From NCBI RefSeq assembly GCF_000018465.1, contig NC_010085.1, positions 1,020,001 through 1,052,000 on the forward strand: a DNA stretch of 32,000 nucleotides, written 5' to 3'. Origin of the DNA: Nitrosopumilus maritimus SCM1 (GTDB taxonomy: Archaea > Thermoproteota > Nitrososphaeria > Nitrososphaerales > Nitrosopumilaceae). Position 1 is the stretch's first letter; each line of letters starts with the position of its first letter. Made by a program: the position numbers and the translations under genes. Shown in pieces: positions 13,106 to 31,914 of the stretch. A model generated the notes under the pieces. That model searched no databases. It saw nothing but the letters and a program-made list of their open reading frames with translations, and was not told where the DNA came from.

Positions 13106-13157
13106 AAGGTGTTGTAAATTATTACAACATAAAAACTTTAAATTTTTTTCAAGCAAC

Positions 13158-13352: not shown

Positions 13353-13366
13353 TTTACAATTGTAAA
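13353..13366. promoter_or_regulatory. Palindrome copy tttacaattgtaaa (exact)
   Basis: Lies in the 355-bp gap between the blue copper gene and the 3' end of the ZIP gene. No convincing ORF lies next to it. Confidence 0.6.
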
Positions 13367-14743: not shown

Positions 14744-15791
14744 ATCCCTCGGAGTCTACATTATTTTCATCTTCATTTACCATGAATATTCCAACCCATC
14801 CTTTTTCAGAAAATTCCACTTTGTGCGCATGGAAAAGGTATTTTCCAGGATATTCATATTCAAATTCCATAATTCCACGCTCAGTCTGAGACAGTGTTAT
14901 CATGTCCGTGTAAAATGACGGCACAATGTCAGTTCCTGTCGGATAATATTTGTACAGATTTCCATGTAAGTGAAGATTGTTTATAGGATCAAATTCCACC
15001 ATGTTGACAACATAAACTCGAATCAATTCATTGGCATTGATTTGAATTGGATGATGTTGATAATAGAATGGAATGGTATTTGCAGCATAGAAATTATTTT
15101 CAGTGTCAAAATCAGTATCAAGACCGTTTAGAACCATAACCATTTCATCAGCTGGTGGACGTTCTTCTTTGGGATCTACAATGAATACTCCATACAAACC
15201 ATGAACAATGTGTTCTTCAAGTGGCATTACATGGCAGTGATAAGGATGAACGCCCACAGGACCTGCTTCAAACTCATAAACGAATTGTCCCCCGTTTCCA
15301 CCTACAGGTTCAAAAACACCATCCATTCCAGCAGGATGAATTCCATGAAAATGCATCGTGTGTTCTTTTTCTCCGTTATTGATGAACTTGATTCGAACAA
15401 CATCTCCTTCTGTTGCTCTTATTGTTGGTCCTGGAACTGTTCCATTAAATGTCCAAACATTGTAAAATATTCCAGGCGATACTTCCATTATTTCATCATC
15501 ATTAGCAATTATCGTGTATTCGCGCAGAGTTGTGCCATCATCTAATTGTAAAATACGACCATAATTGAAATCTCGCAGATATTCCATAGGATCAAACTCT
15601 ACTGTTGCACTAGTATACAGAGGATCCAGTACTTCTCCAGTTGTTTTTACCACAGCGCCAGTATGTGTGACAAAAGTATTCTCTTCTTGTTGAGCATCAA
15701 TTCCCTCAGGAAATGCGGTAAAGAGTACAGAGATGGTTCCAACTGCAATTAGTAATATCAACATAATTCCTGAACGTGATTTTATCATCAA
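14733..15791 (-). CDS. Two-domain multicopper oxidase (NirK-like / small MCO), exported
   Basis: Signal anchor. Copper-ligand motifs are HTMHFHGIH, HPYHCHVMPLEEHIVHGLYG, NLHLHGN and FHAH. Confidence 0.8.
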   Translation of the reverse strand: MMIKSRSGIMLILLIAVGTISVLFTAFPEGIDAQQEENTFVTHTGAVVKTTGEVLDPLYTSATVEFDPMEYLRDFNYGRILQLDDGTTLREYTIIANDDEIMEVSPGIFYNVWTFNGTVPGPTIRATEGDVVRIKFINNGEKEHTMHFHGIHPAGMDGVFEPVGGNGGQFVYEFEAGPVGVHPYHCHVMPLEEHIVHGLYGVFIVDPKEERPPADEMVMVLNGLDTDFDTENNFYAANTIPFYYQHHPIQINANELIRVYVVNMVEFDPINNLHLHGNLYKYYPTGTDIVPSFYTDMITLSQTERGIMEFEYEYPGKYLFHAHKVEFSEKGWVGIFMVNEDENNVDSEGYGT

Positions 15792-15813
15792 AATTACAAA
15801 AAAATCTAATAAT

Positions 15814-15839
15814 ATAAAGTTAGCCTAGGCTAACTTTAT
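15814..15839. promoter_or_regulatory. 26-bp perfect palindrome ATAAAGTTAGCCTAGGCTAACTTTAT, a putative DtxR-family operator
   Basis: Lies 23-48 nt upstream of the MCO start (15791) and just downstream of the DtxR-family gene. The TTAGC/GCTAA half-sites resemble the DtxR/IdeR box. TATTAGCT direct repeats follow at 15837 and 15856. Confidence 0.6.
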
Positions 15840-15936
15840 TAGCTCAAGGCAATATTATTAGCTTGACGCAAATCTAAAAACAATGCCACAAAAATCAAAA
15901 AAATTGAATTTCTGAAATTCAGATTCATAGAAAATT

Positions 15937-16431
15937 TCATTTGTTAAATAAAACAAGTAAATCAGGATTGGATTTTAGAAAAGTGGTAAATTTTCTTAGT
16001 TGTTTCATAGTTTTTGGGTTTATGTGATGCTCTATTCCCTCTGCATCCTTGTTTGCAATGGATCTATCCACTCCAATAATTTCAAAAAAGTTCAACAATT
16101 CACTGTGTTTTTGGCGTATGTCATTTGCAATACTGATTCCTTTGGCAGTTAGTTTTATTCCACGATACTTGGCATATTCCAGACAGCCAGCAGAATCTAA
16201 TTTCTGTAGCATTTTAGTTACGCTAGGTGGACGAACTCCCATATAGTTTGAAATGTCAGTAGGAGATGCGTGTCCTTTTAATTCAACCAATTCATAGATC
16301 ACTTCAAGATAGTCTTCCATAGTTGTAGTAAACGAATTTTTTTGGCTATGTGCTTTTTTGATTGATTCTAGTCTTTTTTCTTTTTTAACAGAAGGTTTCT
16401 CTTTTTGTTTGCCAGTCATTTTATTGCTCAC
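15937..16431 (-). CDS. DtxR/MntR-family metal-dependent transcriptional repressor
   Basis: MEDYLEVIYEL...ISNYMGVRPPSVTKMLQKL is a winged HTH, and the metal-site region includes EGIEHH. The Lys-rich 37-aa N-terminal extension may be an over-call. An alternative ATG lies at 16320. Confidence 0.85.
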   Translation of the reverse strand: MSNKMTGKQKEKPSVKKEKRLESIKKAHSQKNSFTTTMEDYLEVIYELVELKGHASPTDISNYMGVRPPSVTKMLQKLDSAGCLEYAKYRGIKLTAKGISIANDIRQKHSELLNFFEIIGVDRSIANKDAEGIEHHINPKTMKQLRKFTTFLKSNPDLLVLFNK

Positions 16432-16517
16432 AAATTTTTTTCATGTCTAGTTTTTATGTTTTTGAAAATAGTTTTTTTGAAGAAGGATAATGTTTTAATC
16501 AATATATCAACACCGAT

Positions 16518-16739
16518 TTAAACAACTAAGATTCCGCTGATAAAGTCAACAAAAGATATTATCACATGCTCAAAATCATGTAAGAAGAATTCTTCTTGAA
16601 AATTTTCATCATCCATATTATGGGAATGGGAATTCATAAGTTCCGGAGTTGCATGAGGATGAGCCTCAACCATAGAAACCATCCCAATAGCAAATACAAG
16701 AAGGAACAAAAATGTAGGGATAATTAAAGATTTCAACAT
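16518..16739 (-). CDS. Small exported His-rich protein (73 aa)
   Basis: Signal peptide ending VEA, then HPHATPELMNSHSHNMDD...HDFEH and a hydrophobic C-terminus. The palindrome lies 58 nt upstream. Confidence 0.45.
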   Translation of the reverse strand: MLKSLIIPTFLFLLVFAIGMVSMVEAHPHATPELMNSHSHNMDDENFQEEFFLHDFEHVIISFVDFISGILVV

Positions 16740-16796: not shown

Positions 16797-16810
16797 TTTA
16801 CAATTGTAAA
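16797..16810. promoter_or_regulatory. Palindrome copy tttacaattgtaaa (exact), shared by divergent genes
   Basis: 58 nt from the start of the His-rich peptide gene (16739, -) and 56 nt from the Kelch gene start (16866, +). Confidence 0.7.
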
Positions 16811-16865: not shown

Positions 16866-17891
16866 ATGAAAAAAATATCATTTTTCTTAATTCTGTTAAT
16901 TTTTCCTGTTTCAGATATTTTTGCAGAAGAAGATTCAGAAGGGTGGAAAAGATTGGCAGACATGCCAGAAGTAAGGTCAGAGATGGAATCAGCTGCAATT
17001 GATGAAAAGATCTATGTGGTGGGAGGCATAGCCAATACAAATCAAGTATCAAATTCTGTTTTTGTTTTTGATACCAAAGATGAATCATGGAGTACTGGAA
17101 CCCCAATGCCAATAGAATTACATCATGCTGGAACTGCAGCCCATGATGGGAAGCTGTATGTTGTTGGAGGATACATGAAAGGGTGGAGTCCATCAAACGC
17201 ATTACTAATTTATGATTCTGTCAAAGATTCTTGGAGTCAGGGCAAGGATATGCCAACTGCTCGCGGTGCACTGACTGCAGAATTTGTAGACGGCAAGCTG
17301 TATGCAGTTGGAGGATTCAATGAGAATTCCCGTACTGAAAATGAAGTGTATGATCCTGCAGACGACTCTTGGGAGAAAATGGCCCCAATGCCTACAGCCA
17401 GGGAACACCTAGCATCAGCAGTTCTAGACGGACAGTTGTTTGTCATTGGTGGCAGGGCAGGACAGGTAAATTCTGATGCAAACGAAATGTACGACTATAC
17501 CTCAGATACTTGGAAAATATTAGAACCACTTCCAACTGCAAGAAGTGGATTGGCTGCATCTGTTATTAGCGGAGCAGTTTTTGTTTTTGGGGGAGAAAGC
17601 TCACTAAGGACATTTGAAGAAAATGAAGCATACATTCCTGAAGAAGGATGGTTTGCACAGCAACCAATGCCAATACCAAGACATGGCTTAGCATCATCAA
17701 CTGTAGGGGACAACATCTATCTTATTGGCGGGGGAGTAGTTCCAGGTTTTAGCTTTAGTGGAATTACTGAAAAATATCACAACACAGTCGTTCCAGAATT
17801 CGGCGTCTTGTCAATTGTGATTTTGGGAATCTCAACTGTCATGATAATTTTGTTTACAAAGCCTAAATTTCAACACATCATTCAGCAATGA
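16866..17891 (+). CDS. Exported Kelch-repeat beta-propeller protein with a C-terminal membrane anchor
   Basis: Signal peptide. There are about six repeats of the Kelch pattern (G.(I/L)YV(V/I)GG ... W ... (M/L)P..R). A C-terminal transmembrane helix is present. Confidence 0.8.
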   Translation: MKKISFFLILLIFPVSDIFAEEDSEGWKRLADMPEVRSEMESAAIDEKIYVVGGIANTNQVSNSVFVFDTKDESWSTGTPMPIELHHAGTAAHDGKLYVVGGYMKGWSPSNALLIYDSVKDSWSQGKDMPTARGALTAEFVDGKLYAVGGFNENSRTENEVYDPADDSWEKMAPMPTAREHLASAVLDGQLFVIGGRAGQVNSDANEMYDYTSDTWKILEPLPTARSGLAASVISGAVFVFGGESSLRTFEENEAYIPEEGWFAQQPMPIPRHGLASSTVGDNIYLIGGGVVPGFSFSGITEKYHNTVVPEFGVLSIVILGISTVMIILFTKPKFQHIIQQ

Positions 17892-17920: not shown

Positions 17921-18316
17921 TTAGATAGTTGTAAAAGAAGAAATTTCAGAAGTGATTTTTTCTTCAGAAATTTCTCCAATGTATCTATATTCATATTCTG
18001 TGTTTAGTAACAATTCTGGAATTTTGACTATATGTCCAGTATGAGGAACAGAATCATGTGAGACAATCATTGAATTAGAAAAGCCATCTCCATTTAGAGC
18101 ATATTCAACTTCACAGACCACAGGGATTTCTGTTTGCGCATATACAACTACGCTATTCTCATGAACATCAATTGCCATAATCTGTTCAAAAGTCATTTCA
18201 GTTTGAACATGTGAATCAGAGTATACGGTAACTGGAGTCATCATGACAAAGACACTACCCAACATCAACAACATTATAAGTATTGTATTTTTCAAACAAT
18301 TTCCAACAGTTTTCAA
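17921..18316 (-). CDS. Hypothetical exported protein (131 aa)
   Basis: N-terminal signal/anchor and a beta-rich body. The palindrome lies 52 nt upstream. Confidence 0.5.
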   Translation of the reverse strand: MKTVGNCLKNTILIMLLMLGSVFVMMTPVTVYSDSHVQTEMTFEQIMAIDVHENSVVVYAQTEIPVVCEVEYALNGDGFSNSMIVSHDSVPHTGHIVKIPELLLNTEYEYRYIGEISEEKITSEISSFTTI

Positions 18317-18367: not shown

Positions 18368-18381
18368 TTTACAAATGTAAA
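18368..18381. promoter_or_regulatory. Palindrome copy tttacaaatgtaaa (1 mismatch)
   Basis: 52 nt upstream of the start at 18316 (-). Confidence 0.65.
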
Positions 18382-18394: not shown

Positions 18395-20071
18395 TTAATT
18401 AAAATTCCATATTCGTTTTTTGAAATAGAACAACCACATTCCAGCAATAATAATCAATATAATTCCCAATATCAAGTTCATAGAATATTCAAGATGTTGT
18501 TTTTCATCAATTTGGTTTTCTGGAAGATCCTGAAGGTATGGATTTTTTGTAATAGGGTTAATCAAAACTTCCGAAGGATTGTATTGATCAGTCAAAAATG
18601 GAACATCAGTTGTCGCGATTATTCCAGTATAGAAGTGCTCTTGTCTGCTTAATTCATCACTCAAATAATCCACAGGACTGTTTTTTGAGAGTTCCAAAAG
18701 CAACAATCTGTCAAACTCGTAAGGCTGATTTGATGAAACTATCATGATATTTTGAATGAATGTGGGTTTTTCTTCAGTTGGAAAAACATAGGATACTGGG
18801 AATGTCTCTTTCATTGTTTTGTATACAGAACGTACCAAAGGGGAGTTATTTCCTTCAATTGAGCCGATTAGATTGGATACAACAATGCCATTTGGCTCAA
18901 GTCTTTTTTCAAGTAATTGAAAAAACTCATGAGTCATCAAATGATAAGGAACATAATTTGTAGCATATGCATCCAGGATTATAAGATCATATTTCTTGTC
19001 AAACATTGAGAGATGTTTTCTTGCATCATCATTGAATATCTGCAGCCGGGGATTTGTTTCTAGATTAAAGTAGGTCTTGGCAACATCAATTACATCAGAA
19101 TCAATTTCAATTACATCAATTTTTGTGTCAGGATATAATGCCAGAAAGTTTTTTGGTCCTGAAAATCCCCCTCCACCTACAAACAAAATATCTTTAGCTG
19201 CAGGATTAAACATCATCCCCAAATGAAAGTACTCAGTATAATCTATCACCAAATCTAGCGGATCACGCATGTTCATAGAGCTGTGCCGCAATCCATCAAG
19301 ATACAAACTTCGATTATCGCCGTATTCTATAATATCCAAATGGCTAAACATAGTTTCTTTTTCAAAAATTAGCATTCCATTGTGAGATATTGTACTTACA
19401 GAAAAAGAAGACCACGGAACAATCAAAATTATAACAATGCCAATTGCAATAATCTTTGGAGATATTTTAAGGCCAATTAGGGAACTGGCAATTAATGCAA
19501 TTCCTAATCCAAAAATTATCTGGTGTACTGTTACATTAGGAATTAAAACAAAAACAGTAACAAATGTTCCAAAAATACTTCCTACAGTTGCAATAGAATA
19601 AAGATTGCCAGACATATTTCCAACTTTTTGCAAGGATTTTGTGCCAAGCTTGATTACATAAGGAGAGACAAATCCAAGCAAGACAGACGGAAGCATCAAC
19701 AGCAAAAAAGTTGCAAGCAATGGAGTGTATTGGGAAATGGGCATGATTGCAAGAGAAAAGTCTACGACATGTGATGCAAAAAATGGCATGCCCACGATAA
19801 AGAGCCCTACTGAAAAAACAATTCCACAAATCTTGTCAAATTTCGGATGTTTGTCTGCTATGCGACCTCCCAAAAAATAACCAAGACTCAAACCGCTTAG
19901 GATTACGCCAATCAGGCTTCCCCAAGTGTAAATTGTGCTTCCAAATACAGGAGTAAGAATTCTGCTTGTCGCAATTTCCAAGGCCATAACAATAGCGCCA
20001 GAAGAAAATGTGAGAACTTTGAGTTTCCACAACATTTCCTGAGATAGTTTTGAATAAGACAGAGAGCTCAT
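18395..20071 (-). CDS. Membrane-fused spermidine-synthase-like (aminopropyl/methyltransferase fold) protein
   Basis: The first ~230 aa form multiple transmembrane helices. The C-terminal part has the Rossmann motif LFVGGGGFSG plus D.I(E/D)ID and ILDAY, as in spermidine synthase-like enzymes. A final transmembrane helix follows. Confidence 0.75.
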   Translation of the reverse strand: MSSLSYSKLSQEMLWKLKVLTFSSGAIVMALEIATSRILTPVFGSTIYTWGSLIGVILSGLSLGYFLGGRIADKHPKFDKICGIVFSVGLFIVGMPFFASHVVDFSLAIMPISQYTPLLATFLLLMLPSVLLGFVSPYVIKLGTKSLQKVGNMSGNLYSIATVGSIFGTFVTVFVLIPNVTVHQIIFGLGIALIASSLIGLKISPKIIAIGIVIILIVPWSSFSVSTISHNGMLIFEKETMFSHLDIIEYGDNRSLYLDGLRHSSMNMRDPLDLVIDYTEYFHLGMMFNPAAKDILFVGGGGFSGPKNFLALYPDTKIDVIEIDSDVIDVAKTYFNLETNPRLQIFNDDARKHLSMFDKKYDLIILDAYATNYVPYHLMTHEFFQLLEKRLEPNGIVVSNLIGSIEGNNSPLVRSVYKTMKETFPVSYVFPTEEKPTFIQNIMIVSSNQPYEFDRLLLLELSKNSPVDYLSDELSRQEHFYTGIIATTDVPFLTDQYNPSEVLINPITKNPYLQDLPENQIDEKQHLEYSMNLILGIILIIIAGMWLFYFKKRIWNFN

Positions 20072-20146: not shown

Positions 20147-20160
20147 TTTACATTTGTAAA
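20147..20160. promoter_or_regulatory. Palindrome copy tttacatttgtaaa (1 mismatch)
   Basis: 76 nt upstream of the start of the spermidine-synthase-like gene (20071, -). Confidence 0.6.
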
Positions 20161-20199: not shown

Positions 20200-21807
20200 T
20201 CAATTTACGGTAATTTCAGTAATCATTCCAGCTTCTGCATGCTCAAGAATATGACAATGCATAACCCAATTTCCAGGATTTGAGAAGTCAACTAGAATAT
20301 CTACAGTTTTTCCAGTAGGAACTAAAACAGAATCTTTCCAGGCCAAATTCTCATTTGGAATTCCATCTTCAGACAAGACCAAGACTCGTTGTCCGTGAAT
20401 ATGTATTGGATGTTGCATGGGATGGGCAGATTCTGGATTGTTGTACAATCTGATTTTTTTGACGTCCCCAACATTTACCTGATAGCCAATATCAAATCCT
20501 TCTTTTCCGGAATTCATATCGCGTATAATCCATTTTGTGTTTTCGTCATCAGACATCGCATTCATTTTTGGCATTTCATCTTCCCATTCAATTTCATCAA
20601 TCTCTTTTTCATGAACTCCCATACTCATTGAATGATCATCCATAGACATTGTTTTAATGTCAAATTCAAGTTCCAAGTCAGGAGGATCAGAGAAGAATTT
20701 TCTAAACTGATCAATTTCTTGGACTATGTCAGAATTTTGTTCTATAGAGTAAAAACTGGAATCAATTTTGTTCAAAGAGGGGGTGACAGAGATAGTTCCA
20801 AGAACATATGTTTTGTCAGATGTTGAATGTGTAATATCATACTGTCCTGATTCTTCAAATAATACATCAATAGTTCTTCTCTCAGAAGATGCCATAATTA
20901 CAGAGTCAACAAATTCTTGTCTTTCATATTCACTTGCATCATCTGCAATTAATTTGATTTTTTGCTGTTCAATTCCAAAATCAAAAGTTCTGGTGTTTGC
21001 AGCGTTTGTGAGGTAGAACCTCACAATATCGCCCTGTTTGAATTCAAGTGAAAGATTTGCATCCCCATTAGCAATCATGGTGTTTCCAAATCGTCCCATT
21101 AGCGTATGAGTGGTAATATCAGGGTCAAATGATTGCAGTTCATTATCCACAATCGAAATATCGTCTAGGAATAATGGAATTTCATAGTCTACAGGGAGAT
21201 TATCGGAGTTTTTTGATTCAACTAGAATATTTCCATACAATCCCATATCCATTTGCATTTCTGTTTTTACATGAGGGTGATAGAAGAAAATTCCAGTGTC
21301 AGGGAATTTTAGAGAATATTGAAAAGTTTCTCCAGGAAGCACAGGGTCTTGTGAAACTCCAGGCACTCCATCACTAGCAGAATCAAGTCTTAACCCATGC
21401 CAATGAACAGTAGTAGGTAAATCAAGATTATTGGTAAAATTTACAGTTATCTCGTCGCCTTGTGAAACTATCAATAGAGGGCCAGGAGTTTGTTCATTAT
21501 AGCCAAACATTTGAAGTGTTTTACCATCAATGTTTTTTGTGATTTGACTTGCAGTAAGATCAAATGTGTCATTGTTTGAAACAGATACAGAGGAAACTGT
21601 TGAAAGTAATTTGGCACCGCCATCAGAGACATTTTGAGGAATTTCACCGCATAGTTTATCCCCACAGACAATATTGCTTGTTGCTTTTCCAAAGCTTTTT
21701 GGGGATTTTGCATTTTTAGCCTTTAGTGCATCTGCACTGTCAATACCACTTAAAAAAATACTGCCAGAAAAAATAATAAACAAAATCAAAATGGTGTAAA
21801 ATTTCAA
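20200..21807 (-). CDS. Three-domain multicopper oxidase (laccase/CueO/CopA-like), exported
   Basis: All four MCO copper motifs are present: VHWHGL, FFYHPH, HPIHIHG and HCHILEHAEAGM. It has a signal peptide and a TTG start. Confidence 0.88.
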   Translation of the reverse strand: MKFYTILILFIIFSGSIFLSGIDSADALKAKNAKSPKSFGKATSNIVCGDKLCGEIPQNVSDGGAKLLSTVSSVSVSNNDTFDLTASQITKNIDGKTLQMFGYNEQTPGPLLIVSQGDEITVNFTNNLDLPTTVHWHGLRLDSASDGVPGVSQDPVLPGETFQYSLKFPDTGIFFYHPHVKTEMQMDMGLYGNILVESKNSDNLPVDYEIPLFLDDISIVDNELQSFDPDITTHTLMGRFGNTMIANGDANLSLEFKQGDIVRFYLTNAANTRTFDFGIEQQKIKLIADDASEYERQEFVDSVIMASSERRTIDVLFEESGQYDITHSTSDKTYVLGTISVTPSLNKIDSSFYSIEQNSDIVQEIDQFRKFFSDPPDLELEFDIKTMSMDDHSMSMGVHEKEIDEIEWEDEMPKMNAMSDDENTKWIIRDMNSGKEGFDIGYQVNVGDVKKIRLYNNPESAHPMQHPIHIHGQRVLVLSEDGIPNENLAWKDSVLVPTGKTVDILVDFSNPGNWVMHCHILEHAEAGMITEITVN

Positions 21808-21848: not shown

Positions 21849-21862
21849 TTTACAATTGTAAA
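21849..21862. promoter_or_regulatory. Palindrome copy tttacaattgtaaa (exact)
   Basis: 42 nt upstream of the TTG start of the three-domain MCO (21807, -). A TATA-like attattatatg lies between them. Confidence 0.7.
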
Positions 21863-22518: not shown

Positions 22519-22532
22519 TTTACAATTGTAAA
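22519..22532. promoter_or_regulatory. Palindrome copy tttacaattgtaaa (exact)
   Basis: 56 nt upstream of Zn-ribbon paralog 1 (22588). Confidence 0.7.
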
Positions 22533-22587: not shown

Positions 22588-22794
22588 ATGAGTTGTAATG
22601 GGGTATGTCAAAGATACAAAGCAAAAAAGCCTAAAAACACAAGCAGGTATGAAGCAGGACAAAAAAGATGTAATATTTGTAACATGTATATGAATTGGGA
22701 AGGACTGTATTGCCCTTGTTGCAATATGAGAATTAGAGTTTCATCAAGATATTCAAAACTCAAAGAAAAACATCTTAAGATTCAGAGAATTTGA
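22588..22794 (+). CDS. Small six-Cys zinc-ribbon protein with a basic tail (paralog 1)
   Basis: CNGVC...RYEAGQKRCNICNMYM......CPCCNMRIRV. It is a paralog of 23897..24118. The exact palindrome lies 56 nt upstream. Confidence 0.55.
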   Translation: MSCNGVCQRYKAKKPKNTSRYEAGQKRCNICNMYMNWEGLYCPCCNMRIRVSSRYSKLKEKHLKIQRI

Positions 22795-22802: not shown

Positions 22803-23501
22803 TTACTTTTGGACAATTCTTTTGTTTTTTGATCTTACAACTTTGATGTAAGATGATATTTGCAAAGCGAGAACTATCACACTCATAGCAACAAAAGGAA
22901 TTATGAAAGTGCTTTCTGGTGGCACATTTTTGTGGAAAGATTCCGTATAATGAATGAAAAGAAAATAGGACGTGTGAATGGCAACTAGATAAAAAACAAT
23001 GTGGGAACCAGTATGAATCCACTTCCAAGATGATGCCCCTAACCATTTCATTGCCCTATCTGAAGAGGTTATGGCCATAATTGCAATCCACAAAAATGCT
23101 ACAAATCCCAGCGTGTTTGCAAGCCCAAATCCAGGTTCCAGTCTCACCATTCTGCCCAATTGGGGGACAAATTCATACCCAAAGAATTGGGCAACATCCC
23201 AATTTGCCCATCCATGTGCAATAAGAATTCCATGAGTTGTTGCAAGGGCAGCAAACCAAATCCCAAATTCTCTTCTCCACTTGAGCAAGAAAGATGTTCG
23301 TGTCCATATCTTACTTAACGGACCTATAATCAGAGTTACAAATAACAAAGTGTATCCAGAATCGCCAAACGCCCTCCACAATCGCATTTCATCATGCCAT
23401 TCATAGTGAGCTAACCAAAAAACAAAAGTCAATGACAATGCAATAGAAAATACAAGAGAATGTCTAGTTACAAAATTATTTTTAATTTTTAGTTTAATCA
23501 T
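22803..23501 (-). CDS. Ferric-reductase-like transmembrane domain protein (YedZ/MsrQ-like di-haem b membrane protein)
   Basis: Six transmembrane helices. WRREFGIWFAALATTHGILIAH and ITSSDRAMKWLGASSWKWIHTGSHIVFYLVAIHTSYF parallel the conserved His-bearing helices of E. coli MsrQ/YedZ, which I am recalling from memory. No MsrP-like partner is adjacent. Confidence 0.6.
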   Translation of the reverse strand: MIKLKIKNNFVTRHSLVFSIALSLTFVFWLAHYEWHDEMRLWRAFGDSGYTLLFVTLIIGPLSKIWTRTSFLLKWRREFGIWFAALATTHGILIAHGWANWDVAQFFGYEFVPQLGRMVRLEPGFGLANTLGFVAFLWIAIMAITSSDRAMKWLGASSWKWIHTGSHIVFYLVAIHTSYFLFIHYTESFHKNVPPESTFIIPFVAMSVIVLALQISSYIKVVRSKNKRIVQK

Positions 23502-23586: not shown

Positions 23587-23600
23587 CTTACAATTGTAAA
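23587..23600. promoter_or_regulatory. Palindrome copy cttacaattgtaaa (1 mismatch)
   Basis: 86 nt upstream of the YedZ-like gene start and immediately after the stop of the small membrane ORF. Confidence 0.6.
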
Positions 23601-23845: not shown

Positions 23846-23859
23846 TTTACAATTGTAAC
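23846..23859. promoter_or_regulatory. Palindrome copy tttacaattgtaac (1 mismatch), shared by divergent genes
   Basis: 33 nt from the 23813 start (-) and 38 nt from the 23897 start (+). The conserved block GTTAAGTATCAAAA follows after 8 nt. Confidence 0.7.
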
Positions 23860-23896: not shown

Positions 23897-24118
23897 ATGG
23901 CAACCGTATGTAAAGGAATTTGTGTTAGATTTAGAGCGACAGGGTATGTAGGAAAGCACAGATATGAAAAGGGACAAAAAAGATGTCCGGTGTGCGAGAT
24001 ATTTATGACGTATCCAGAAGTAAGATGCCCCTGTTGTAGTATCAAACTAAGAGTTACACCTAGAGGAAACAAGGCTAGAAAGGAAATTCAGAAAAAAAGA
24101 AATTATGTTTGGCATTAA
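23897..24118 (+). CDS. Small six-Cys zinc-ribbon protein with a basic tail (paralog 2)
   Basis: CKGIC...RYEKGQKRCPVCEIFM......CPCCSIKLRV, with the same Cys spacing as 22588..22794. The palindrome lies 38 nt upstream. Confidence 0.55.
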   Translation: MATVCKGICVRFRATGYVGKHRYEKGQKRCPVCEIFMTYPEVRCPCCSIKLRVTPRGNKARKEIQKKRNYVWH

Positions 24119-24795
24119 TCCTGGAATCTATCAACAACTTCTTCAAACAACACTCTTGGAATTCCACCTTTGAAAACATGTTCCTCTCCTTTGAAATTGA
24201 CAATCTTGAATAAAGGAATTTTTTCAACGCCAAGACTATTTGTGTAATCAATATTAGATTGAATGTCTTGGCCATATTTTCCTGAATCTAAGCAGTTTGA
24301 AAACTGGTCTATATCCAAATCAAGTTCTAATGCAAAATTCTTTAATTGATCAGATTTTGCCCAAGTATCAATTTCTTGTTGCGACACGTATAGCATTTCC
24401 TGGTATTCTGAATACTTTTTTTGTTCGTCTGCACAAAAAGTAGCTTGAGATATTAAAATAGAATCATCTCCTAACGGGGAAACATCCAAAAATACAATGT
24501 TGGCTTTGTTTGTTTCAACAAGTTTTTCTGAGATTTCAGAATAGTTAGTATCATACCAATATTTACAAGAAGTGCATTGGTAGTCATTGAATGCAAAAAT
24601 TGTTACAGGAGCATCAGGATCACCGACTACAGGGGAAACTGACGGAGGTACACTGTTAAAATCATTATTTGAAAGAGTGTCTGAATCATTTTCCGGAGTA
24701 AATTTTTTGTCTATCTCAGGGGAAACCAAGCTGTGCAACAAAAATATGATTGCAATAATAATTGCACCTATGATAATTTTTTTGCTTAATTTCAT
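24115..24795 (-). CDS. DsbA-like thioredoxin-fold thiol:disulfide oxidoreductase (active site CTSC), membrane-anchored
   Basis: The pattern (V/I)TIFAFNDYQCTSCKYW is the classic DsbA-family context. N-terminal anchor. It starts 4 nt after the Met-rich gene, indicating an operon. Confidence 0.8.
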   Translation of the reverse strand: MKLSKKIIIGAIIIAIIFLLHSLVSPEIDKKFTPENDSDTLSNNDFNSVPPSVSPVVGDPDAPVTIFAFNDYQCTSCKYWYDTNYSEISEKLVETNKANIVFLDVSPLGDDSILISQATFCADEQKKYSEYQEMLYVSQQEIDTWAKSDQLKNFALELDLDIDQFSNCLDSGKYGQDIQSNIDYTNSLGVEKIPLFKIVNFKGEEHVFKGGIPRVLFEEVVDRFQD

Positions 24796-24799
24796 GATA

Positions 24800-25402
24800 T
24801 TAATTCATAGATTGCATCATTGGGTGATTAGACATAAGAACTTGCATTTCATCCATGTGGCTTTGCATCAGTTCTGTCATTTTCATATTAAATTCATCAT
24901 CTGTTAAATCCGAAGACAGTAATTCTTGCATTTCAGAGACATGTTTTGACATTATCTGAATCATTTCTTCCCTTGTTTCAGGATCTTGCATCATTTGCAT
25001 CATCATTTCCTGATTCATCATCATGCCTTGTCCCATCATATCTGAATTCATCATTTGATCATTATCCATCATGGATTTCATCATGTTTTGGTTTTGCATC
25101 ATCATATCCATCATCTGTGGTCGCATCTGAGGATCGTTCATCATTCTATCCATCATAGGTCCCATCATCATTTCCATGTGTTGAGGGTCATTAAGCATCA
25201 TATCGTGTATCTCATTCATTGTTTCAGGATCATTCATCATATTTCCCATCCATTGATTCATTAATTGAGGATCATTCATCATTTGGTTTTGCATGGGCAT
25301 ATTTCCAGTCATCATGGAATTAGCGGAAATTCCCAATCCCACAAGTAAACCTACTAAAAATACCCCTACAGTAATTCCTATCCATAAAGTTTGGTTAGCC
25401 AT
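24800..25402 (-). CDS. Membrane-anchored methionine-rich protein (56 Met in 200 aa) with MMNDP(Q/E) repeats
   Basis: N-terminal transmembrane helix, then a low-complexity M/N/D/Q/P region with QMMNDPQLM, NMMNDPETM, DMMLNDPQHM, RMMNDPQMR and QMMQDPETR. The exact palindrome lies 40 nt upstream. Confidence 0.7.
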   Translation of the reverse strand: MANQTLWIGITVGVFLVGLLVGLGISANSMMTGNMPMQNQMMNDPQLMNQWMGNMMNDPETMNEIHDMMLNDPQHMEMMMGPMMDRMMNDPQMRPQMMDMMMQNQNMMKSMMDNDQMMNSDMMGQGMMMNQEMMMQMMQDPETREEMIQIMSKHVSEMQELLSSDLTDDEFNMKMTELMQSHMDEMQVLMSNHPMMQSMN

Positions 25403-25441: not shown

Positions 25442-25455
25442 TTTACAATTGTAAA
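25442..25455. promoter_or_regulatory. Palindrome copy tttacaattgtaaa (exact)
   Basis: 40 nt upstream of the Met-rich protein start (25402, -). Confidence 0.7.
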
Positions 25456-25600: not shown

Positions 25601-25614
25601 TTTACACTTGTAAA
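25601..25614. promoter_or_regulatory. Palindrome copy tttacacttgtaaa (1 mismatch)
   Basis: Distal member of a tandem pair (36-bp spacing) upstream of the cupredoxin gene at 25689. Confidence 0.6.
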
Positions 25615-25636: not shown

Positions 25637-25650
25637 ATTACGATTGTAAA
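25637..25650. promoter_or_regulatory. Palindrome copy attacgattgtaaa (2 mismatches)
   Basis: 39 nt upstream of the TTG start of the cupredoxin (25689). Confidence 0.6.
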
Positions 25651-25688: not shown

Positions 25689-26150
25689 TTGAGTACTCCA
25701 ACTTCTAGTCATGCTTATGGTATTGGGTTAATTACATTGCTTGTTGGGTTGTCAGCATCTGTAGTCTTTTACACTTCATTTTATCTTCCCGAATCTTTAG
25801 CAAAACCGTCTGTCTCTGAGAATATATTGGAACCTGAAAAAGAATTAATCATAGAAATTGTTCCAGGAGCAGTAATAGAAGGAAATGAAAGCTATGTTCC
25901 AAACAAAGCAACTGCACTACTTACAATAAACAACAAAGTGATTTGGAAAAATAATGACGATACTGCACACACTGTAACTCCTGATCATAGATATACAGAT
26001 GGATTTAGCGGAGAATTTGGTTCTACAGGAGTTTTAAAGCCAGGTGATACGTACGAGTTCTTATTTACAGAAGAACAAGAAATACCATATCATTGCCAAC
26101 CACATCCTTGGATGAAAGGAAAAATTTCAGTGGAGAAAAGCAGATTCTAA
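25689..26150 (+). CDS. Membrane-anchored cupredoxin (plastocyanin/amicyanin-like blue copper protein)
   Basis: Type-1 Cu ligands: DTAHTV (His) and YHCQPHPWMKGKI (Cys, His, Met). N-terminal transmembrane helix. TTG start. Confidence 0.8.
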   Translation: MSTPTSSHAYGIGLITLLVGLSASVVFYTSFYLPESLAKPSVSENILEPEKELIIEIVPGAVIEGNESYVPNKATALLTINNKVIWKNNDDTAHTVTPDHRYTDGFSGEFGSTGVLKPGDTYEFLFTEEQEIPYHCQPHPWMKGKISVEKSRF

Positions 26151-26942: not shown

Positions 26943-26956
26943 CTTACAATTGTAAA
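26943..26956. promoter_or_regulatory. Palindrome copy cttacaattgtaaa (1 mismatch)
   Basis: 39 nt upstream of the CcdA-like gene start (26995). GTTAAGTATCAAAA follows after 8 nt. Confidence 0.7.
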
Positions 26957-26994: not shown

Positions 26995-27993
26995 ATGTCA
27001 ACGGTGGTAATTGCAAAAAAATCAATGGTAATAATTTCATTTGCATTATTTTCATTAATCTTTCTTGGAATAATTTTTTCGCTTGGAACAAATTTTACAA
27101 TAGAAGGTAAAGAACACACAACATACCTCTCATGGATAGTAATTGCATATGTTGCAGGATTGTCCATGATTGTTCTTCCATGTACACTGCCACTGGTATT
27201 CATCATAGTTCCACTAAGTATGGGACAAGGGTACAAGAAAGGATTAGCCATGGCATTACTTTTTGGTCTAGGACTAGTCATTACAATTGCATCTTATGGA
27301 ATTGCAATTGCAGGAATTGGGCAAAGTGCATCACTAGACCAAGCATCAACTATCATGTTCTTAATTGCAGGAATTGCGGCATTTGTCTTTGGATTATCAC
27401 AACTAAAAATTATTTCATTAAAGCTACCATCGTATTCAGGAACTCCAAAGTTTATCCAGAACAGAGGAGAATATACAAAATCATTTTTCATGGGATTACT
27501 ATTAGGAAATGCAGGAGTTGGATGCCCCAATCCGTTGTTTTACTGGCTACTAATCTACATTGCAGGAACAGGCAGTATCGAAGTCGGAGCTTCATTAGGA
27601 GTAGTTCACGGAGTTGGAAGGGCAATTCCCCTAATTTTGATGTCAGTTCTTGCAGTAATTGGAATCAATGCAACAAAGAGTTTGACTCTAAAACGAGAAT
27701 CAATTGAGCGAGCATCAGGATGGATGCTAATAGTGATTGGGGCATTTTTGATAATCAACGGACTGCCAGAGGGACACGAATGGTACGAAGAACTATTCAT
27801 CCATCAAGGATGGAATCAACTCGTTGAGATGACAGGAATACCAGCAGAATTTGAGATGGACGAACATACACATGACCACGGACATGTAGAAGGAAGAGAT
27901 TTCAAAGTATTTTACACAGCTTTGTTAGCGGTATTGGTATTGAGTCCGTTGTTCATACGTTCAGTTAGAAAAATCAGGGAGGTGAATGCATGA
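26995..27993 (+). CDS. CcdA/DsbD-family transmembrane thiol:disulfide electron transporter with a His-rich C-terminal loop
   Basis: Membrane-embedded Cys motifs LPCTLPL and GCPNPLF are typical of the DsbD_2/CcdA family. C-terminal EMDEHTHDHGHVEG is followed by a last transmembrane helix. Confidence 0.8.
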   Translation: MSTVVIAKKSMVIISFALFSLIFLGIIFSLGTNFTIEGKEHTTYLSWIVIAYVAGLSMIVLPCTLPLVFIIVPLSMGQGYKKGLAMALLFGLGLVITIASYGIAIAGIGQSASLDQASTIMFLIAGIAAFVFGLSQLKIISLKLPSYSGTPKFIQNRGEYTKSFFMGLLLGNAGVGCPNPLFYWLLIYIAGTGSIEVGASLGVVHGVGRAIPLILMSVLAVIGINATKSLTLKRESIERASGWMLIVIGAFLIINGLPEGHEWYEELFIHQGWNQLVEMTGIPAEFEMDEHTHDHGHVEGRDFKVFYTALLAVLVLSPLFIRSVRKIREVNA

Positions 27994-28130
27994 AAGATCC
28001 TGTATGTGGAATGGAGATTGAAGAAAAAGGAGAAGTTTTTTCTTACAATGGAAAAGATTATCGTTTTTGTTGTGCCAGCTGTAAATGGGCATTTGAAAAT
28101 AATCCAGAGCAATTTGAAAATGAATCATAA
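27990..28130 (+). CDS. YHS/TRASH-domain small metal-binding protein (46 aa; not in the ORF track)
   Basis: Hand translation gives MKDPVCGMEIEEKGEVFSYNGKDYRFCCASCKWAFENNPEQFENES, a textbook YHS pattern (DPVCGM...Y.FC...C...F). Its ATG overlaps the CcdA stop as ATGA. Confidence 0.7.
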   Translation: MKDPVCGMEIEEKGEVFSYNGKDYRFCCASCKWAFENNPEQFENES

Positions 28131-28464: not shown

Positions 28465-29598
28465 TTATGATCCAGGCCTTGGTTCAAGAGTAAGAACGAC
28501 ATTAATTGCCTTACCATCTCTAATGATTCCCAAATCTAGTGTGTCGCCAACATTTTTCTCACGTTGCAAATGTGTTAAAAGATCATCAATTTTTCTTACT
28601 TCCTTTCCATCAATGGATAAAATAATATCTCCACCTATAGTATACTCAATTTCATCATACACTGCAGTTTCAGATGAGCCTCTAAGGCCTGCTTTATTGG
28701 CAGGACTGTCTTTTACAACTGTCATAACTAAAACACCTTTTGCATCTTCGAGATTCAATAGTTCTGCAAGATCAGGGGTAATGTTTGCACTAGAAATTCC
28801 AACCCAAGGATGATGAAATTCCCCATCCGTAATCAAAACAGGGACAATTTTTAAAATAACATTTGATGGAATTGAAAATCCAACACCTGAAAAGCTACCA
28901 TCACTTGAATAAATTGCAGTGTTTACCCCAACTACTTCGCCTTTCATATTCAATAGTGGTCCTCCCGAATTTCCTGGATTGATTGCAGTATCTGTCTGGA
29001 TTACATCAGGAATGGAAAATCCAACACCTGTAGGCAACAATCGTCCTAATTGACTCACAATTCCAGAAGTCATAGAGCCTGACAATCCAAAGGGATTACC
29101 TATTGCAGTTATTTGCTCTCCTACTTTGAGATTAGAGGAATCACCTATTGGTAGAGGGTAAAGTTTTTCAGAATTTACATCAATTTTGAGTACTGCGATA
29201 TCTGCATAAGGATCAGTTCCTACAACTTTTGCACGATAAGATGTTCCGTCAGTAAAAGTTACATCAATTTTCTTACTATCCCTTACCACATGATTGTTTG
29301 TTATGATGTGACCCTCCTTGTCAAAAATAAATCCAGAGCCAACACCACTAGCATCTCCATGAGGGGATGTTTTTGTAACTGCAATACTTACTACACCAAA
29401 TTCTGAGCGTTCAAATATTTCAACAAGTGAAAGGTCAGAAGAGGATTCAACATTAGATTGAAGATTCTCAGAGGAGTAGGAATTGTCTTGTGCAAGTACA
29501 GGTGACAGAAACGCAACAGACAGCCCCAACATCAAAACAACGCTAAAGACTACTCCTCCAAGCAAAATTTTTGAATTATTTCTAAACAAGCAATGCAC
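28465..29598 (-). CDS. HtrA/DegP-family serine protease with a C-terminal PDZ domain, exported
   Basis: Catalytic motifs TNNHV, DIAVLK and GNSGGPLL are present. A PDZ-like C-terminus, a signal anchor and a GTG start complete the picture. Confidence 0.9.
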   Translation of the reverse strand: MHCLFRNNSKILLGGVVFSVVLMLGLSVAFLSPVLAQDNSYSSENLQSNVESSSDLSLVEIFERSEFGVVSIAVTKTSPHGDASGVGSGFIFDKEGHIITNNHVVRDSKKIDVTFTDGTSYRAKVVGTDPYADIAVLKIDVNSEKLYPLPIGDSSNLKVGEQITAIGNPFGLSGSMTSGIVSQLGRLLPTGVGFSIPDVIQTDTAINPGNSGGPLLNMKGEVVGVNTAIYSSDGSFSGVGFSIPSNVILKIVPVLITDGEFHHPWVGISSANITPDLAELLNLEDAKGVLVMTVVKDSPANKAGLRGSSETAVYDEIEYTIGGDIILSIDGKEVRKIDDLLTHLQREKNVGDTLDLGIIRDGKAINVVLTLEPRPGS

Positions 29599-29643
29599 CT
29601 AATACAAAAAAAAGATAGATTATGGGATAAATAACAATAGTAT

Positions 29644-29657
29644 TTTACAATTGTAAA
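29644..29657. promoter_or_regulatory. Palindrome copy tttacaattgtaaa (exact)
   Basis: 46 nt upstream of the HtrA start (29598, -) and 2 nt after the stop of the Lrp-TRASH regulator gene. Confidence 0.7.
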
Positions 29658-29658
29658 A

Positions 29659-30102
29659 TTAATTTTCTTCTCTTGCTTTTTCTATGAGAGATTGAATACG
29701 TCCATTGTTTTTTTCTTTGTATTGAGTTTTGCAGGTGTTGCAACAAAAAAATCTCTCAAAATTTGCAAATTTGTAAACATGAGGTTTTTGTCCAACAGGA
29801 CCCTCACAGAAATCACATTTGAGTTTTACAGACATTCCAGATTCTAAAGAAACATCATGATGACCATCAGAATGACAACTGCACGTTTCAATTTTTTCTT
29901 TGTGGTCGCTATCAAGATTTGATGAATCAATAATAGGAGAAATGGATTTTATTAAACCAATATTAACCAGTCTTTGATATCTTGCCTGAATTGTAGGAGT
30001 ACTAATGTCCAGTTCACGTGAGATTTGTCTAAAGGACTTTCTTCCATCTTCCTGCAAAGACTGGATTATTCCAATATCTACTTCATCTAATTCATGAGGC
30101 AT
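29659..30102 (-). CDS. Lrp/AsnC-type HTH + TRASH-domain transcriptional regulator (CopR-like putative metal sensor)
   Basis: The N-terminal IGIIQSLQEDGRKSFRQISRELDISTPTIQARYQRLVNIGLI is an AsnC-type HTH. A Cys/His linker CSCHSDGHH follows. The C-terminal CDFC-x20-CCNTC matches the TRASH pattern C-x2-C-x19-22-C-x3-C. Confidence 0.8.
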   Translation of the reverse strand: MPHELDEVDIGIIQSLQEDGRKSFRQISRELDISTPTIQARYQRLVNIGLIKSISPIIDSSNLDSDHKEKIETCSCHSDGHHDVSLESGMSVKLKCDFCEGPVGQKPHVYKFANFERFFCCNTCKTQYKEKNNGRIQSLIEKAREEN

Positions 30103-30140
30103 GGATTATCATACAATCTTTCCATATTTATGAACCAAAC

Positions 30141-30154
30141 TTTACAATTGTAAA
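30141..30154. promoter_or_regulatory. Palindrome copy tttacaattgtaaa (exact) in the regulator's own promoter
   Basis: 39 nt upstream of the ATG of the Lrp-TRASH regulator (30102, -). A TATA-like cataaatatgg lies between them. Confidence 0.7.
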
Positions 30155-30212: not shown

Positions 30213-31010
30213 TTACCTGTTTAATTGCCCGTCAATGACTCTCTGAAATGTAGAGTATGGCTGAGCCCCAGATATAGGAGTAAATCCGATATCTGCATTT
30301 CCTACAAAGAATCCAGGAGTTCCAGAGACACCATACGTGCGCCCATCATTGAGATCATTTTGAACCTCCTCAATGTATTTTCCTGAATCCAAACAAGAAT
30401 CAAACTCGATAGAATCAAGACCCAGTTCTGATGCATATTGCTTGTAAAGTGTAACAGATTGAGCAACAGGCAGGTCTTTCCAAATTTGTTGGTCTTCAAA
30501 AATCATGTCATGCATCTCCCAGAACTTTCCTTGATCATCAGCGCATTCAGATGCCAGTGCTGCAGGAACAGCATTTGGATGAATGTTTTGAATTGGGAAA
30601 TCTCTGTAAACAAAGTTCACTTTTCCTGTTTGGATATAGTTTTGCTCTATTAGTGGAAGTGTTGTCTCATGAAATTTTGCGCAAAATGGGCACTGGAAAT
30701 CAGAGAATTCAACTATGGTAATTGATGCGTTTGGATTTCCCTTCATAGGATCATCATCAAAAGAGATGTTTCTAATAATCTGAGGCCCAAATTGTTGTTG
30801 AGAAGCAGTACTTGGTTGCAGGTTTGGAACAGATTCCCTTATGACAACTTCTTTTGGCTCAGCAGTCTCTCCACCAATTACATAACCTCCCAAAAATGCA
30901 GAAACGATAGATACTGCAACAATTGCCACAATTAGCCGATTAAATGTGGATTTGCTTACAGAGATTTCTTTGTCTGGTTTTTGATCCTCAATGAATTCAA
31001 AATCTTCCAC
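30213..31010 (-). CDS. DsbA-like thioredoxin-fold thiol:disulfide oxidoreductase (active site CPFC), membrane-anchored
   Basis: ITIVEFSDFQCPFCAKFH and GTPGFFV. It has a transmembrane helix after an acidic N-terminus and a GTG start. Confidence 0.85.
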   Translation of the reverse strand: MEDFEFIEDQKPDKEISVSKSTFNRLIVAIVAVSIVSAFLGGYVIGGETAEPKEVVIRESVPNLQPSTASQQQFGPQIIRNISFDDDPMKGNPNASITIVEFSDFQCPFCAKFHETTLPLIEQNYIQTGKVNFVYRDFPIQNIHPNAVPAALASECADDQGKFWEMHDMIFEDQQIWKDLPVAQSVTLYKQYASELGLDSIEFDSCLDSGKYIEEVQNDLNDGRTYGVSGTPGFFVGNADIGFTPISGAQPYSTFQRVIDGQLNR

Positions 31011-31047: not shown

Positions 31048-31061
31048 TTTACAATTGTAAG
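31048..31061. promoter_or_regulatory. Palindrome copy tttacaattgtaag (1 mismatch)
   Basis: 38 nt upstream of the GTG start of the DsbA-like gene (31010, -). Confidence 0.65.
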
Positions 31062-31124: not shown

Positions 31125-31814
31125 CTAATTTTTGGCCCAACCACGCTGAATTAGCTTTTCCGCAGTATTGGAACTAACACAAGCAGGACTGTTATCTGTA
31201 GTTTTGAGTACCAATTGCAAATTTTCTTTGCATAAAATGTCATCAGGTAAAATACCACTTGCAACTTGTTTTAGGGGCGCCAGGTCTGAAGCAGGAGGAT
31301 CTACGTTAACATCTGATTCCAAATTATCGTTTTCCAATTTTTCTATGATTTGTACTACTAGAAATTCATAAACTAATGTTTCCACATCATTTGTGATTAA
31401 AACAAGTTTGTATTTTCCAGGAAGCTCATTAAAGAAGAATGTTTGAGGAAGTTGCCATTCACTGTGTGAAGTTGAAGGAGCTATACCTGTTTCTTTGGTA
31501 GTTGTCTTCCAGAGAACGCTGTCCCTGTATACGTTGATCATATCAGGGATTGTTCCATTCCCACCTATTCCATAAAAAGTTCCCAGATCAACAACAGGTA
31601 ATTTGGTATCAGGATCCTCAAAAATTCCAACAGAGCTGTCCACTACACTAAATATGCTCACGGATTGAGGTACAAATGTTTCATCACACAGTATGTTTTT
31701 TGTATTATTCATATTGATGCATTCATCATGTGCTGGCGAATCATCTGCAAATGATTTTTCAACATCAATTGTTAAAAGAAAAATTAGTGGAAGAATTATC
31801 CAAATTAGTTTCAT
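31125..31814 (-). CDS. Hypothetical exported protein (229 aa)
   Basis: Clear signal peptide (MKLIWIILPLIFLLTIDVEKSFA). No family recognised. The palindrome lies 58 nt upstream. Confidence 0.5.
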   Translation of the reverse strand: MKLIWIILPLIFLLTIDVEKSFADDSPAHDECINMNNTKNILCDETFVPQSVSIFSVVDSSVGIFEDPDTKLPVVDLGTFYGIGGNGTIPDMINVYRDSVLWKTTTKETGIAPSTSHSEWQLPQTFFFNELPGKYKLVLITNDVETLVYEFLVVQIIEKLENDNLESDVNVDPPASDLAPLKQVASGILPDDILCKENLQLVLKTTDNSPACVSSNTAEKLIQRGWAKN

Positions 31815-31871: not shown

Positions 31872-31885
31872 ATTACAATTGTAAA
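31872..31885. promoter_or_regulatory. Palindrome copy attacaattgtaaa (1 mismatch)
   Basis: 58 nt upstream of the start at 31814 (-). Confidence 0.65.
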
Positions 31886-31900: not shown

Positions 31901-31914
31901 TTTACAGTTGTAAA
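31901..31914. promoter_or_regulatory. Palindrome copy tttacagttgtaaa (1 mismatch)
   Basis: 42 nt upstream of the ATG at 31956 (+) and 29 bp from the copy at 31872. The two copies sit back to back and serve divergent genes. Confidence 0.65.

Follow-up and report, generated by a model that had tools for sequence, protein, structure and literature searches.

A fourteen-base palindrome paired with a short HTH-TRASH gene in Nitrosopumilus maritimus SCM1: a probable CopR/CopT-type regulator and its candidate operator

Ammonia-oxidizing archaea (AOA), which rank with the most abundant marine microbes, respire through a copper-centred chain, and the locus described here raises the question of which protein acts on a palindrome that recurs across an island of their metal and thiol-redox genes. 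The stretch analysed, hereafter the window, comprises 32,000 nucleotides (nt) of AT-rich DNA (33-37% GC) from Nitrosopumilus maritimus SCM1 (NC_010085.1, positions 1,020,001 to 1,052,000), and the gene under study is an open reading frame (ORF) of 147 amino acids (aa) that is flanked by two exact copies of the 14-base palindrome TTTACAATTGTAAA, here called the box. The encoded protein combines an Lrp/AsnC-type helix-turn-helix (HTH) with a TRASH domain; this is the architecture of the copper-responsive CopR/CopT proteins of Sulfolobales, and TRASH/YHS domains bind metals through cysteines. We propose that the 147-aa protein very probably binds the box, and that it is likely to represent a shortened CopR/CopT-type metal-sensing factor of the Nitrosopumilaceae which, by binding the boxes, controls a copper and thiol-redox regulon. 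The features of the locus on which this proposal turns are as follows (coordinates are those of the window).

29659-30102, minus strand: regulator gene, ORF of 147 aa with Lrp/AsnC-type HTH, flexible Cys/His linker and TRASH domain
29947-30090, minus strand: winged HTH (aa 5-52), from Pfam, PDB sequence matches and invariant columns
29857-29883, minus strand: linker motif C74-S-C76-H-S-D-G-H-H82, from alignments
29707-29823, minus strand: TRASH domain (aa 94-132), Pfam Arc_trans_TRASH
30141-30154, palindromic: exact box upstream of the regulator, 38-nt gap to the ATG at 30102, proximal end at -39
30124-30131, minus strand: TATA-like ATAAATAT of the regulator gene, separated from the upstream box by 9 nt and from the ATG by 21 nt
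29644-29657, palindromic: exact box downstream of the regulator, 1 nt past the stop codon (29659-29661)
29627-29634: TATA-like TTATTTAT following that box, promoter of the HtrA-like gene
28465-29598, minus strand: HtrA-like serine protease (Trypsin_2 and PDZ in Pfam), box 45 nt before the GTG at 29598

The domain composition of the regulator was established with Pfam, in which the HTH_AsnC-type model PF13404 (aa 5-45, E-value 5.5e-13) and HTH_24 PF13412 (E-value 1.8e-12) score above cut-off and Arc_trans_TRASH PF08394 covers aa 94-132 with 34.5 bits against a cut-off of 27 (E-value 2.2e-8), and the top PDB sequence matches are Lrp/AsnC proteins (E-value 1.6e-9 over aa 4-59). In alignments of close orthologues five residues of the putative recognition helix S34-T-P-T-I-Q-A-R41, namely S34, T35, P36, T37 and R41, are invariant, and the TRASH cysteines of the regulator (C96-D-F-C99, x20, C120-C121-N-T-C124) are conserved further still, as C96, C99, C120, C121 and C124 do not vary in homologues spanning 40-99% identity. 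The TRASH consensus reportedly given by Ettema et al. (2003) is C-x2-C-x19-22-C-x3-C, a pattern to which C96-x2-C99-x20-C120-x3-C124 conforms. The linker cysteines C74 and C76 are conserved at 90% or more within the Nitrosopumilaceae and are missing in more distant homologues. An AlphaFold model of the monomer (mean predicted local distance difference test, pLDDT, 65.9; predicted template modelling score 0.38) gives domain-level information only: residues 1-53 (HTH) and 93-146 (TRASH region) fold, and the stretch 54-92 between them is disordered (pLDDT below 50).

The RAM domain (PF01037, AsnC_trans_reg) was found by Pfam neither in the 147-aa regulator nor in the homologues P0121-P0128, and is present in P0129, P0130, P0135 and P0137, relatives of 209-212 aa that combine HTH, RAM and TRASH; relative to these the RAM-less clade, composed of the regulator and homologues of 140-182 aa, shows an alignment gap of approximately 70 columns. 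The closest protein, P0001 from Marine Group I thaumarchaeote SCGC RSA3 / AAA799-D11, is 99% identical, and its database name, 'HTH-type transcriptional regulator LysM', is unsupported owing to an NCBIfam LysM score of 34 bits against a cut-off of 180; the scores of the regulator likewise lie far under the NCBIfam cut-offs for the LysM, Lrp and LrpA models. Some orthologues (P0016, P0074, P0121 and those of loci L010, L013 and L080) reach 182-190 aa by an extra C-terminal tail of about 38 aa which is hydrophobic and His-rich (...AVASITSLSVIGAGVCINHGIEHIFHSATNLA) and absent from the window protein, and which might serve as a membrane anchor.

Counted with up to 2 mismatches, the box occurs 22 times in the window (8 exact matches and 10 with one mismatch), as compared to 0.79 matches expected from shuffling and a maximum of 3 in 100 shuffles. 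Twenty of the 22 matches are intergenic, and 21 are situated between 9.7 kb and the right end of the window, the first 9.7 kb being occupied by housekeeping genes such as succinyl-CoA ligase and containing a single, intragenic match with 2 mismatches. Almost every transcription unit of the resulting island (approximately 9.7-32 kb), which is dense in metal and thiol-redox genes, is headed by a box. As Rfam at gathering threshold identified only one tRNA in the window, the boxes do not form part of a known RNA family.

Alignment of 49 box-bearing promoters, taken from the window and 13 related loci, yielded the consensus TTTACAATTGTAAAGT followed by about 7 variable bases and then TTAAATA or ATAAATA, so that the TATA box begins some 9-10 nt past the box. 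The modal distance between box and start codon is 37 nt (18 of the 49 promoters), while the centre of the TATA element lies approximately 24 nt from the start codon, which, judged by the usual archaeal distance from TATA to transcription start, implies that these promoters may be leaderless or nearly so. With a leaderless start and a 37-nt gap the centre of the box would fall near -45, directly upstream of the position of the transcription factor B recognition element (BRE), and the constant spacing of '39 nt' is then best ascribed to leaderless promoter geometry rather than to a translational signal. Gaps of 37-39 nt precede the genes for the ZnuA-like protein, the 73-aa Zn-ribbon protein, orf200, cupredoxin-153, the DsbD-like protein and DsbA-265, whereas the gap is 41 nt for the multicopper oxidase (MCO) MCO-535, 45 nt for HtrA and 51-142 nt for the remaining targets. 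The sequence-only reading had described an HTH joined to TRASH through a Cys/His linker, which the domain searches and the sequence confirm, and an exact box on either side of the gene, which is correct except for the details of spacing: the upstream box leaves a gap of 38 nt and has its proximal end at -39, the downstream box ahead of htrA lies 1 nt and not 2 nt past the stop codon, and the same spacing at 9 other targets was a slightly generous count, given six other genes at 37-39 nt and two at 41 and 45 nt.

The association of the box with the regulator gene is conserved well beyond this genome. Among 14 genome loci with orthologues of 68-99% identity the box is found at -51/-52 of the ATG in 13, and a degenerate copy occupies the same place in the fourteenth; a TATA element follows the box, and the sequence upstream of it is unrelated between loci. 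A scan of metagenomes recovered 80 loci with regulator homologues of 51-78% identity, 74 of which had at least 100 nt of upstream sequence and could be tested. A box with no more than 2 mismatches was present within 130 nt upstream of the regulator gene in 70 of these 74, where shuffles predict 0.2, and 63 of the 70 have at most one mismatch; of the 46 loci at or below 63% identity, 43 have it. Many of the distant loci, which span 2-6 kb, contain no box other than the one ahead of the HTH-TRASH gene. Of the four box-negative loci one has a box with 3 mismatches at the right place, and in the other three (L091, L097 and L100, a single lineage of about 52-56% identity and 40-42% GC) the regulator stands directly behind an ORF and no box occurs within 600 nt; the C-terminal sequence of this ORF looks Dps/ferritin-like, and the regulator is probably in an operon with it. 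Within the Nitrosopumilaceae loci boxes precede the genes for the regulator (13), DsbD (8), DsbA-265 (8), HtrA (6), orf200 (5) and the Zn-ribbon protein (4). The suggestion of autoregulation is thus strengthened by a box that persists ahead of the regulator gene while its flanks have diverged, and a survey of co-occurrence, which had been put forward as a check, showed association in the direction from regulator to motif. We presume from this that the box at 30141-30154 is the autoregulatory operator of the regulator gene.

Two further observations concern the comparison loci themselves. Loci L007 and L011, contigs of one metagenome-assembled genome (MAG; CAZBBN01), encode homologues of 74% and 70% identity with a box upstream of each, and these may be either paralogues or a strain mixture. 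Loci L006, L009, L013 and L014, which have approximately 33% GC and Nitrosopumilus-type genes including the regulator, are found in MAGs labelled Phycisphaerae, Amylibacter, Planctomycetota and Phycisphaeraceae, labels that look like the result of binning contamination.

The partner genes of the box in distant lineages provide a link to copper. RAM-less homologues at 47-58% identity share the box with divergent HMA- or YHS-type P1B ATPases in the canonical cop layout, which, together with half-sites that are the same as in Pyrococcus, bears out the CopR/CopT-like reading first suggested from the sequence. A lone box stands halfway between the regulator and the divergent gene in these distant loci (in L092 the two start codons are 38 and 40 nt away), and such a single copy would serve both divergent promoters. 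The partner is an HMA-type P1B ATPase of 800-819 aa in L017, L074, L086, L087, L089, L090, L092, L094, L095, L098, L099, L102 and L103, a YHS-type P-type ATPase of about 700 aa in L061, L065 and L072, and a DsbD-like protein of 331 aa in approximately 20 distant loci; small YHS proteins and a Csp-type copper storage protein (L021) were also encountered. In L017, with 51% GC, the exact 14-mer is kept in the intergenic region between copA and the regulator, and here as well as in L018 an ArsR-type gene follows the regulator. Among the RAM-containing relatives, one of 212 aa from a cluster labelled Bathyarchaeota has TTTACATTTGTAAA 38 nt before the adjacent YHS-ATPase gene, and of P0129 and P0135, both on short contigs, one gene is followed after about 580 nt by a box with 2 mismatches, while the contig of the other contains none. 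The conserved pairing of the box with the regulator and with its partner genes therefore constitutes the classical signature of an autoregulated factor and its operator.

In L064, L066, L075 and L079 boxes also precede genes for a BNR/sialidase-like exported protein and a Met-rich YtkA-like protein. In Nitrososphaera viennensis a 'sialidase' and DsbD are listed among the genes induced by copper limitation, though the motif given there is another one (Reyes et al. 2020, PMC7785015).

Besides the regulator and HtrA, the island of the window holds a ZnuA-type binding protein, a ZIP-like transporter, a DtxR-type regulator, a Kelch-repeat protein, a ferric-reductase-like membrane protein, two cupredoxin-like proteins, a two-domain and a three-domain MCO, a DsbD-like protein, four DsbA-like thioredoxins, a glutaredoxin-like protein, a 46-aa YHS protein and two paralogous small Zn-ribbon proteins. 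The boxes and the genes behind them are, from right to left:

31872-31885 and 31901-31914, one mismatch each: two boxes before the WING-49 domain protein gene 31125-31814 (minus strand)
31048-31061, one mismatch: 37 nt before the DsbA-like thioredoxin gene 30213-31010 (minus strand)
26943-26956, one mismatch: 38 nt before the DsbD-like gene 26995-27993 (plus strand), which is followed by the genes for the 46-aa YHS protein (27990-28130) and the glutaredoxin-like protein (to 28350)
25601-25614 (one mismatch) and 25637-25650 (2 mismatches): two boxes before the plastocyanin-like cupredoxin gene 25689-26150 (plus strand)
25442-25455, exact: 39 nt before orf200 (24800-25402, minus strand), followed by the DsbA-like gene 24115-24795 (minus strand)
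23846-23859, one mismatch: 37 nt before the 73-aa Zn-ribbon protein gene 23897-24118 (plus strand)
23587-23600, one mismatch: 85 nt before the ferric-reductase-like membrane protein gene 22803-23501 (minus strand)
22519-22532, exact: 55 nt before the 68-aa Zn-ribbon protein gene 22588-22794 (plus strand)
21849-21862, exact: 41 nt before the three-domain MCO gene 20200-21807 (minus strand)
20147-20160, one mismatch: 75 nt before the gene for a 558-aa membrane spermine-synthase-like protein, 18395-20071 (minus strand)
18368-18381, one mismatch: 51 nt before orf131 (17921-18316, minus strand)
16797-16810, exact: between the divergent minus-strand string 13565-16739 and the plus-strand Kelch-repeat protein gene 16866-17891
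16518-16739, 15937-16431, 14733-15791 and 13565-14743, minus strand: the string behind that box, encoding a His-rich 73-aa secreted protein, the DtxR-type regulator, the two-domain MCO and the ZIP-like transporter
13353-13366 (exact) and 13158-13171 (one mismatch): two boxes before or within the annotated start of the 454-aa cupredoxin-like gene 11846-13210 (minus strand)
11570-11583, 2 mismatches: 38 nt before the ZnuA-type metal-binding protein gene 10587-11531 (minus strand)
9732-9745, one mismatch, leftmost box of the island: 93 nt before the gene for a 226-aa protein, 9839-10519 (plus strand)

The minus-strand genes 13565-16739 are presumably co-transcribed, and the DtxR-type gene among them may represent a second metal regulator inside the regulon. 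The two basic Zn-ribbon proteins (68 and 73 aa) share the pattern C-x3-C ... GQKRC-x2-C ... CPCC; they belong to no Pfam family and have one sub-threshold NCBIfam match, neither library revealing a recognisable DNA-binding domain, and orthologues of the 73-aa protein are likewise preceded by boxes in L001, L006, L012, L013 and L080. The product of the gene at 31125-31814 is secreted, comprises 229 aa and carries a WING-49 domain at its C-terminus (NCBIfam NF058652, E-value 5e-24). At the other end a tRNA-Val(CAC) gene (9515-9613, plus strand, about 97-99 nt, probably intron-containing) lies just left of the first box at 9732, and the box-rich island thus starts immediately after a tRNA gene.

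In the mechanism that we propose, two HTH domains would contact the two TTTACA half-sites of the palindrome through their recognition helices, the TRASH cysteines would bind Cu(I) or another thiophilic metal, and the bound protein would alter the recruitment of TATA-binding protein (TBP) and transcription factor B (TFB) at the adjacent BRE and TATA elements. The regulator would in this way control its own gene and approximately 20 transcription units in the window, a predicted regulon that comprises extracytoplasmic thiol-redox and quality control (DsbD, four DsbA-like proteins, the glutaredoxin-like protein and HtrA), copper proteins (two MCOs and cupredoxins), metal transport and binding (ZIP-like, ZnuA-like and YHS proteins) and the small Zn-ribbon proteins. 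Such a set would match an extracytoplasmic copper-stress response, in which DsbD, DsbA and the glutaredoxin-like protein may repair mis-oxidised cysteines, HtrA may clear damaged proteins, and MCOs, cupredoxins and YHS proteins may oxidise or buffer copper, with metal transport alongside. The place of the box ahead of the BRE, and the way in which the CopR proteins of Pyrococcus, Saccharolobus and Halobacterium behave, somewhat favour metal-dependent activation of the box genes, and derepression is a less probable mode. As to how a dimer might form on the palindrome, metal-bridging TRASH cysteines or pairing of C-terminal helices can be suggested, albeit speculatively. A more elaborate version, in which Cu(I) bridges the TRASH and CxC cysteines and so assembles the dimer on a box convergent with that of bacterial CopY, making the protein the master switch of an island of at least 22 kb (about 20 units), appears unlikely; if true, a metal-assembled, RAM-less regulator would make the maturation of the copper-protein respiratory chain dependent on copper status.

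A number of observations weigh against this interpretation. The RAM domain mediates the formation of dimers and octamers in Lrp-family proteins, and its loss would leave dimer formation on the palindrome without the usual basis; the AlphaFold monomer holds no confident inter-domain or dimer information for the regulator. All comparison loci were picked via a regulator homologue and hence speak to association only, with no information in the direction from motif to regulator. The homologue P0128, which is 40% identical and has a different recognition helix, has no box in 265 nt of upstream sequence, a single case that also fits recognition-helix specificity. No copper P-type ATPase was seen in the Pfam and NCBIfam annotation of the ORFs of the 32-kb window, nor any ATPase near the regulator in the Nitrosopumilaceae loci (window and related loci), and a thiol or oxidative-stress regulon could account for the target set just as well. 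With regard to activation, the CopR of T. onnurineus is reported as a repressor, and the direction of regulation is for this reason not transferable.

Part of this evidence speaks for a protein that binds the box but senses a thiol-redox switch or another thiophilic metal (Zn, Cd or Ag) rather than copper, and that would govern an envelope oxidoreductase and protease regulon. Such a signal would suit the most conserved Nitrosopumilaceae targets, which are DsbD, DsbA-like and HtrA genes and not copper exporters, the want of a P-type ATPase in the window, the ZnuA- and ZIP-type genes that carry boxes or sit in box-headed gene strings, and the extra linker CxC particular to this clade. However, approximately 20 distant loci share the box with HMA/YHS P1B ATPases, small YHS proteins or a Csp-type copper storage protein, the characterised TRASH regulators respond to copper, and MCOs and cupredoxins are likewise box targets in the window, and we regard a signal other than copper as rather improbable. 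The selection of the comparison loci by the regulator also leaves room for a different factor, of which the HTH-TRASH gene would be a mere target, be it the DtxR-type protein (15937-16431), one of the two basic Zn-ribbon proteins, all of them encoded within the island, or a factor encoded elsewhere; the ArsR-type gene behind the regulator in L017 and L018 also speaks for this reading. The chance of this is small, since the only box in many distant 2-6 kb loci is the one ahead of the HTH-TRASH gene, no other candidate factor was seen as a box partner across the distant loci, and the Pyrococcus homologue occupies a site that agrees with the box both in its half-sites and in its place within the promoter. 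As for the Zn-ribbon proteins, which the sequence-only reading had named as alternative regulators, they are box-preceded targets themselves and, given the result of the domain searches, no better candidates. It is hardly credible that the palindrome is a basal promoter element for a specialised TFB/TBP paralogue instead of the operator of a dimeric regulator: while the box does keep a fixed distance from TATA and borders on the BRE position, its 14 bp form a perfect palindrome of which a single central copy serves divergent promoters, its exact sequence is kept in a genome of 51% GC, and it travels with one specific regulator gene.

If the 147-aa protein is indeed the copper-sensing factor that acts on the box, the pairing names a regulator for copper control in AOA together with its exact operator and a list of predicted targets, and recognition of the box would explain how copper and thiol-redox genes are controlled in these copper-dependent nitrifiers. 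The box could help to mark out copper and thiol-stress regulons when AOA genomes and metatranscriptomes are annotated, and the predicted binding, if true, would mean that a CopR-type sensor is able to work without the oligomerisation domain of Lrp proteins. The HTH-TRASH family as such is known, and the pairing does not amount to a new principle. A search of the literature, for which the library was incomplete, found no paper linking a TRASH regulator or the palindrome to Nitrosopumilus.

Among known systems, CopY of the Firmicutes is a winged-helix protein of the BlaI/MecI type with a C-terminal CxCx4CxC motif. The operators of CopY and CopR in that phylum contain TACANNTGTA, the classical cop box. 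The archaeal box contains TACAATTGTA, and in Lactococcus lactis the CopR operators at copB and yahC have exactly TTTACAATTGTAAA as their core (PMC7253601). Both kinds of protein would be cysteine-based copper sensors; unlike CopY, however, the window protein matches only the Lrp/AsnC-type HTH, has no more than a CxC in its linker and ends in TRASH, and neither Penicillinase_R in Pfam nor a CopY, BlaI or MecI chain in the PDB was found for it at E-values up to 1. A CopY-like binder was sought among the annotated ORFs of the window, small ones included, and no BlaI/CopY-type protein was found with Pfam or NCBIfam. As the protein matches only the Lrp/AsnC-type HTH, the identity of the 14-mer between the archaeal box and the bacterial cop box is best read as convergence or coincidence. 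With the Lrp/AsnC regulators (feast/famine regulatory proteins) LrpA, Ss-LrpB, FL11 and LysM the protein shares the HTH domain, and its box is a short AT-rich palindrome as theirs are; it differs from the full-length members of that family in having TRASH in place of the RAM domain for ligand binding and oligomerisation.

The closest comparison is with the CopR/CopT proteins, of which P. furiosus PF0739, T. onnurineus TON_0836, S. solfataricus SSO2652 and Halobacterium VNG1179C were considered. The window protein differs from these in being without RAM, a domain whose central position in the characterised CopR is taken from the octamer reported for it; an octameric Lrp-like assembly, as seen for Pyrococcus CopR, is consequently unlikely here. 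It differs also in that the window has no nearby ATPase and in a much larger local target set, consisting mostly of Dsb, HtrA, MCO and cupredoxin genes. The order of an N-terminal Lrp/AsnC-type HTH and a C-terminal TRASH is the same, this being a likeness of domain architecture. P. furiosus CopR binds TTNNCAWWWTGNNAA directly upstream of the BRE, as established by chromatin immunoprecipitation sequencing, MEME, electrophoretic mobility shift assays and footprinting, and deletion of its TRASH domain lowered its sensitivity to metal (PMC7830388). The box described here has the same semi-palindromic TTNNCA...TGNNAA form (TT-TA-CA-AT-TG-TA-AA) and the same place upstream of the BRE, albeit with 14 bp instead of 15 bp and a central spacer that is one base shorter. 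In N. viennensis, the motifs of copper limitation are TTCSGSMTTTGWACYANT and an AT-rich one, the palindrome not being mentioned, and regulation of the cop genes is called an open question (Reyes et al. 2020, PMC7785015); the palindrome matches neither of these published motifs. As in the CopR/CopT systems, the box stands ahead of the regulator's own gene and homologues at 47-58% identity are divergent from copA-type ATPases, and the RAM-less homologues of L017 and L092 have the same kind of gene layout as the 'CopT' cluster of N. viennensis, a member of the same class of AOA, in which CopT is grouped with CopA2 and CopZ (PMC7785015).

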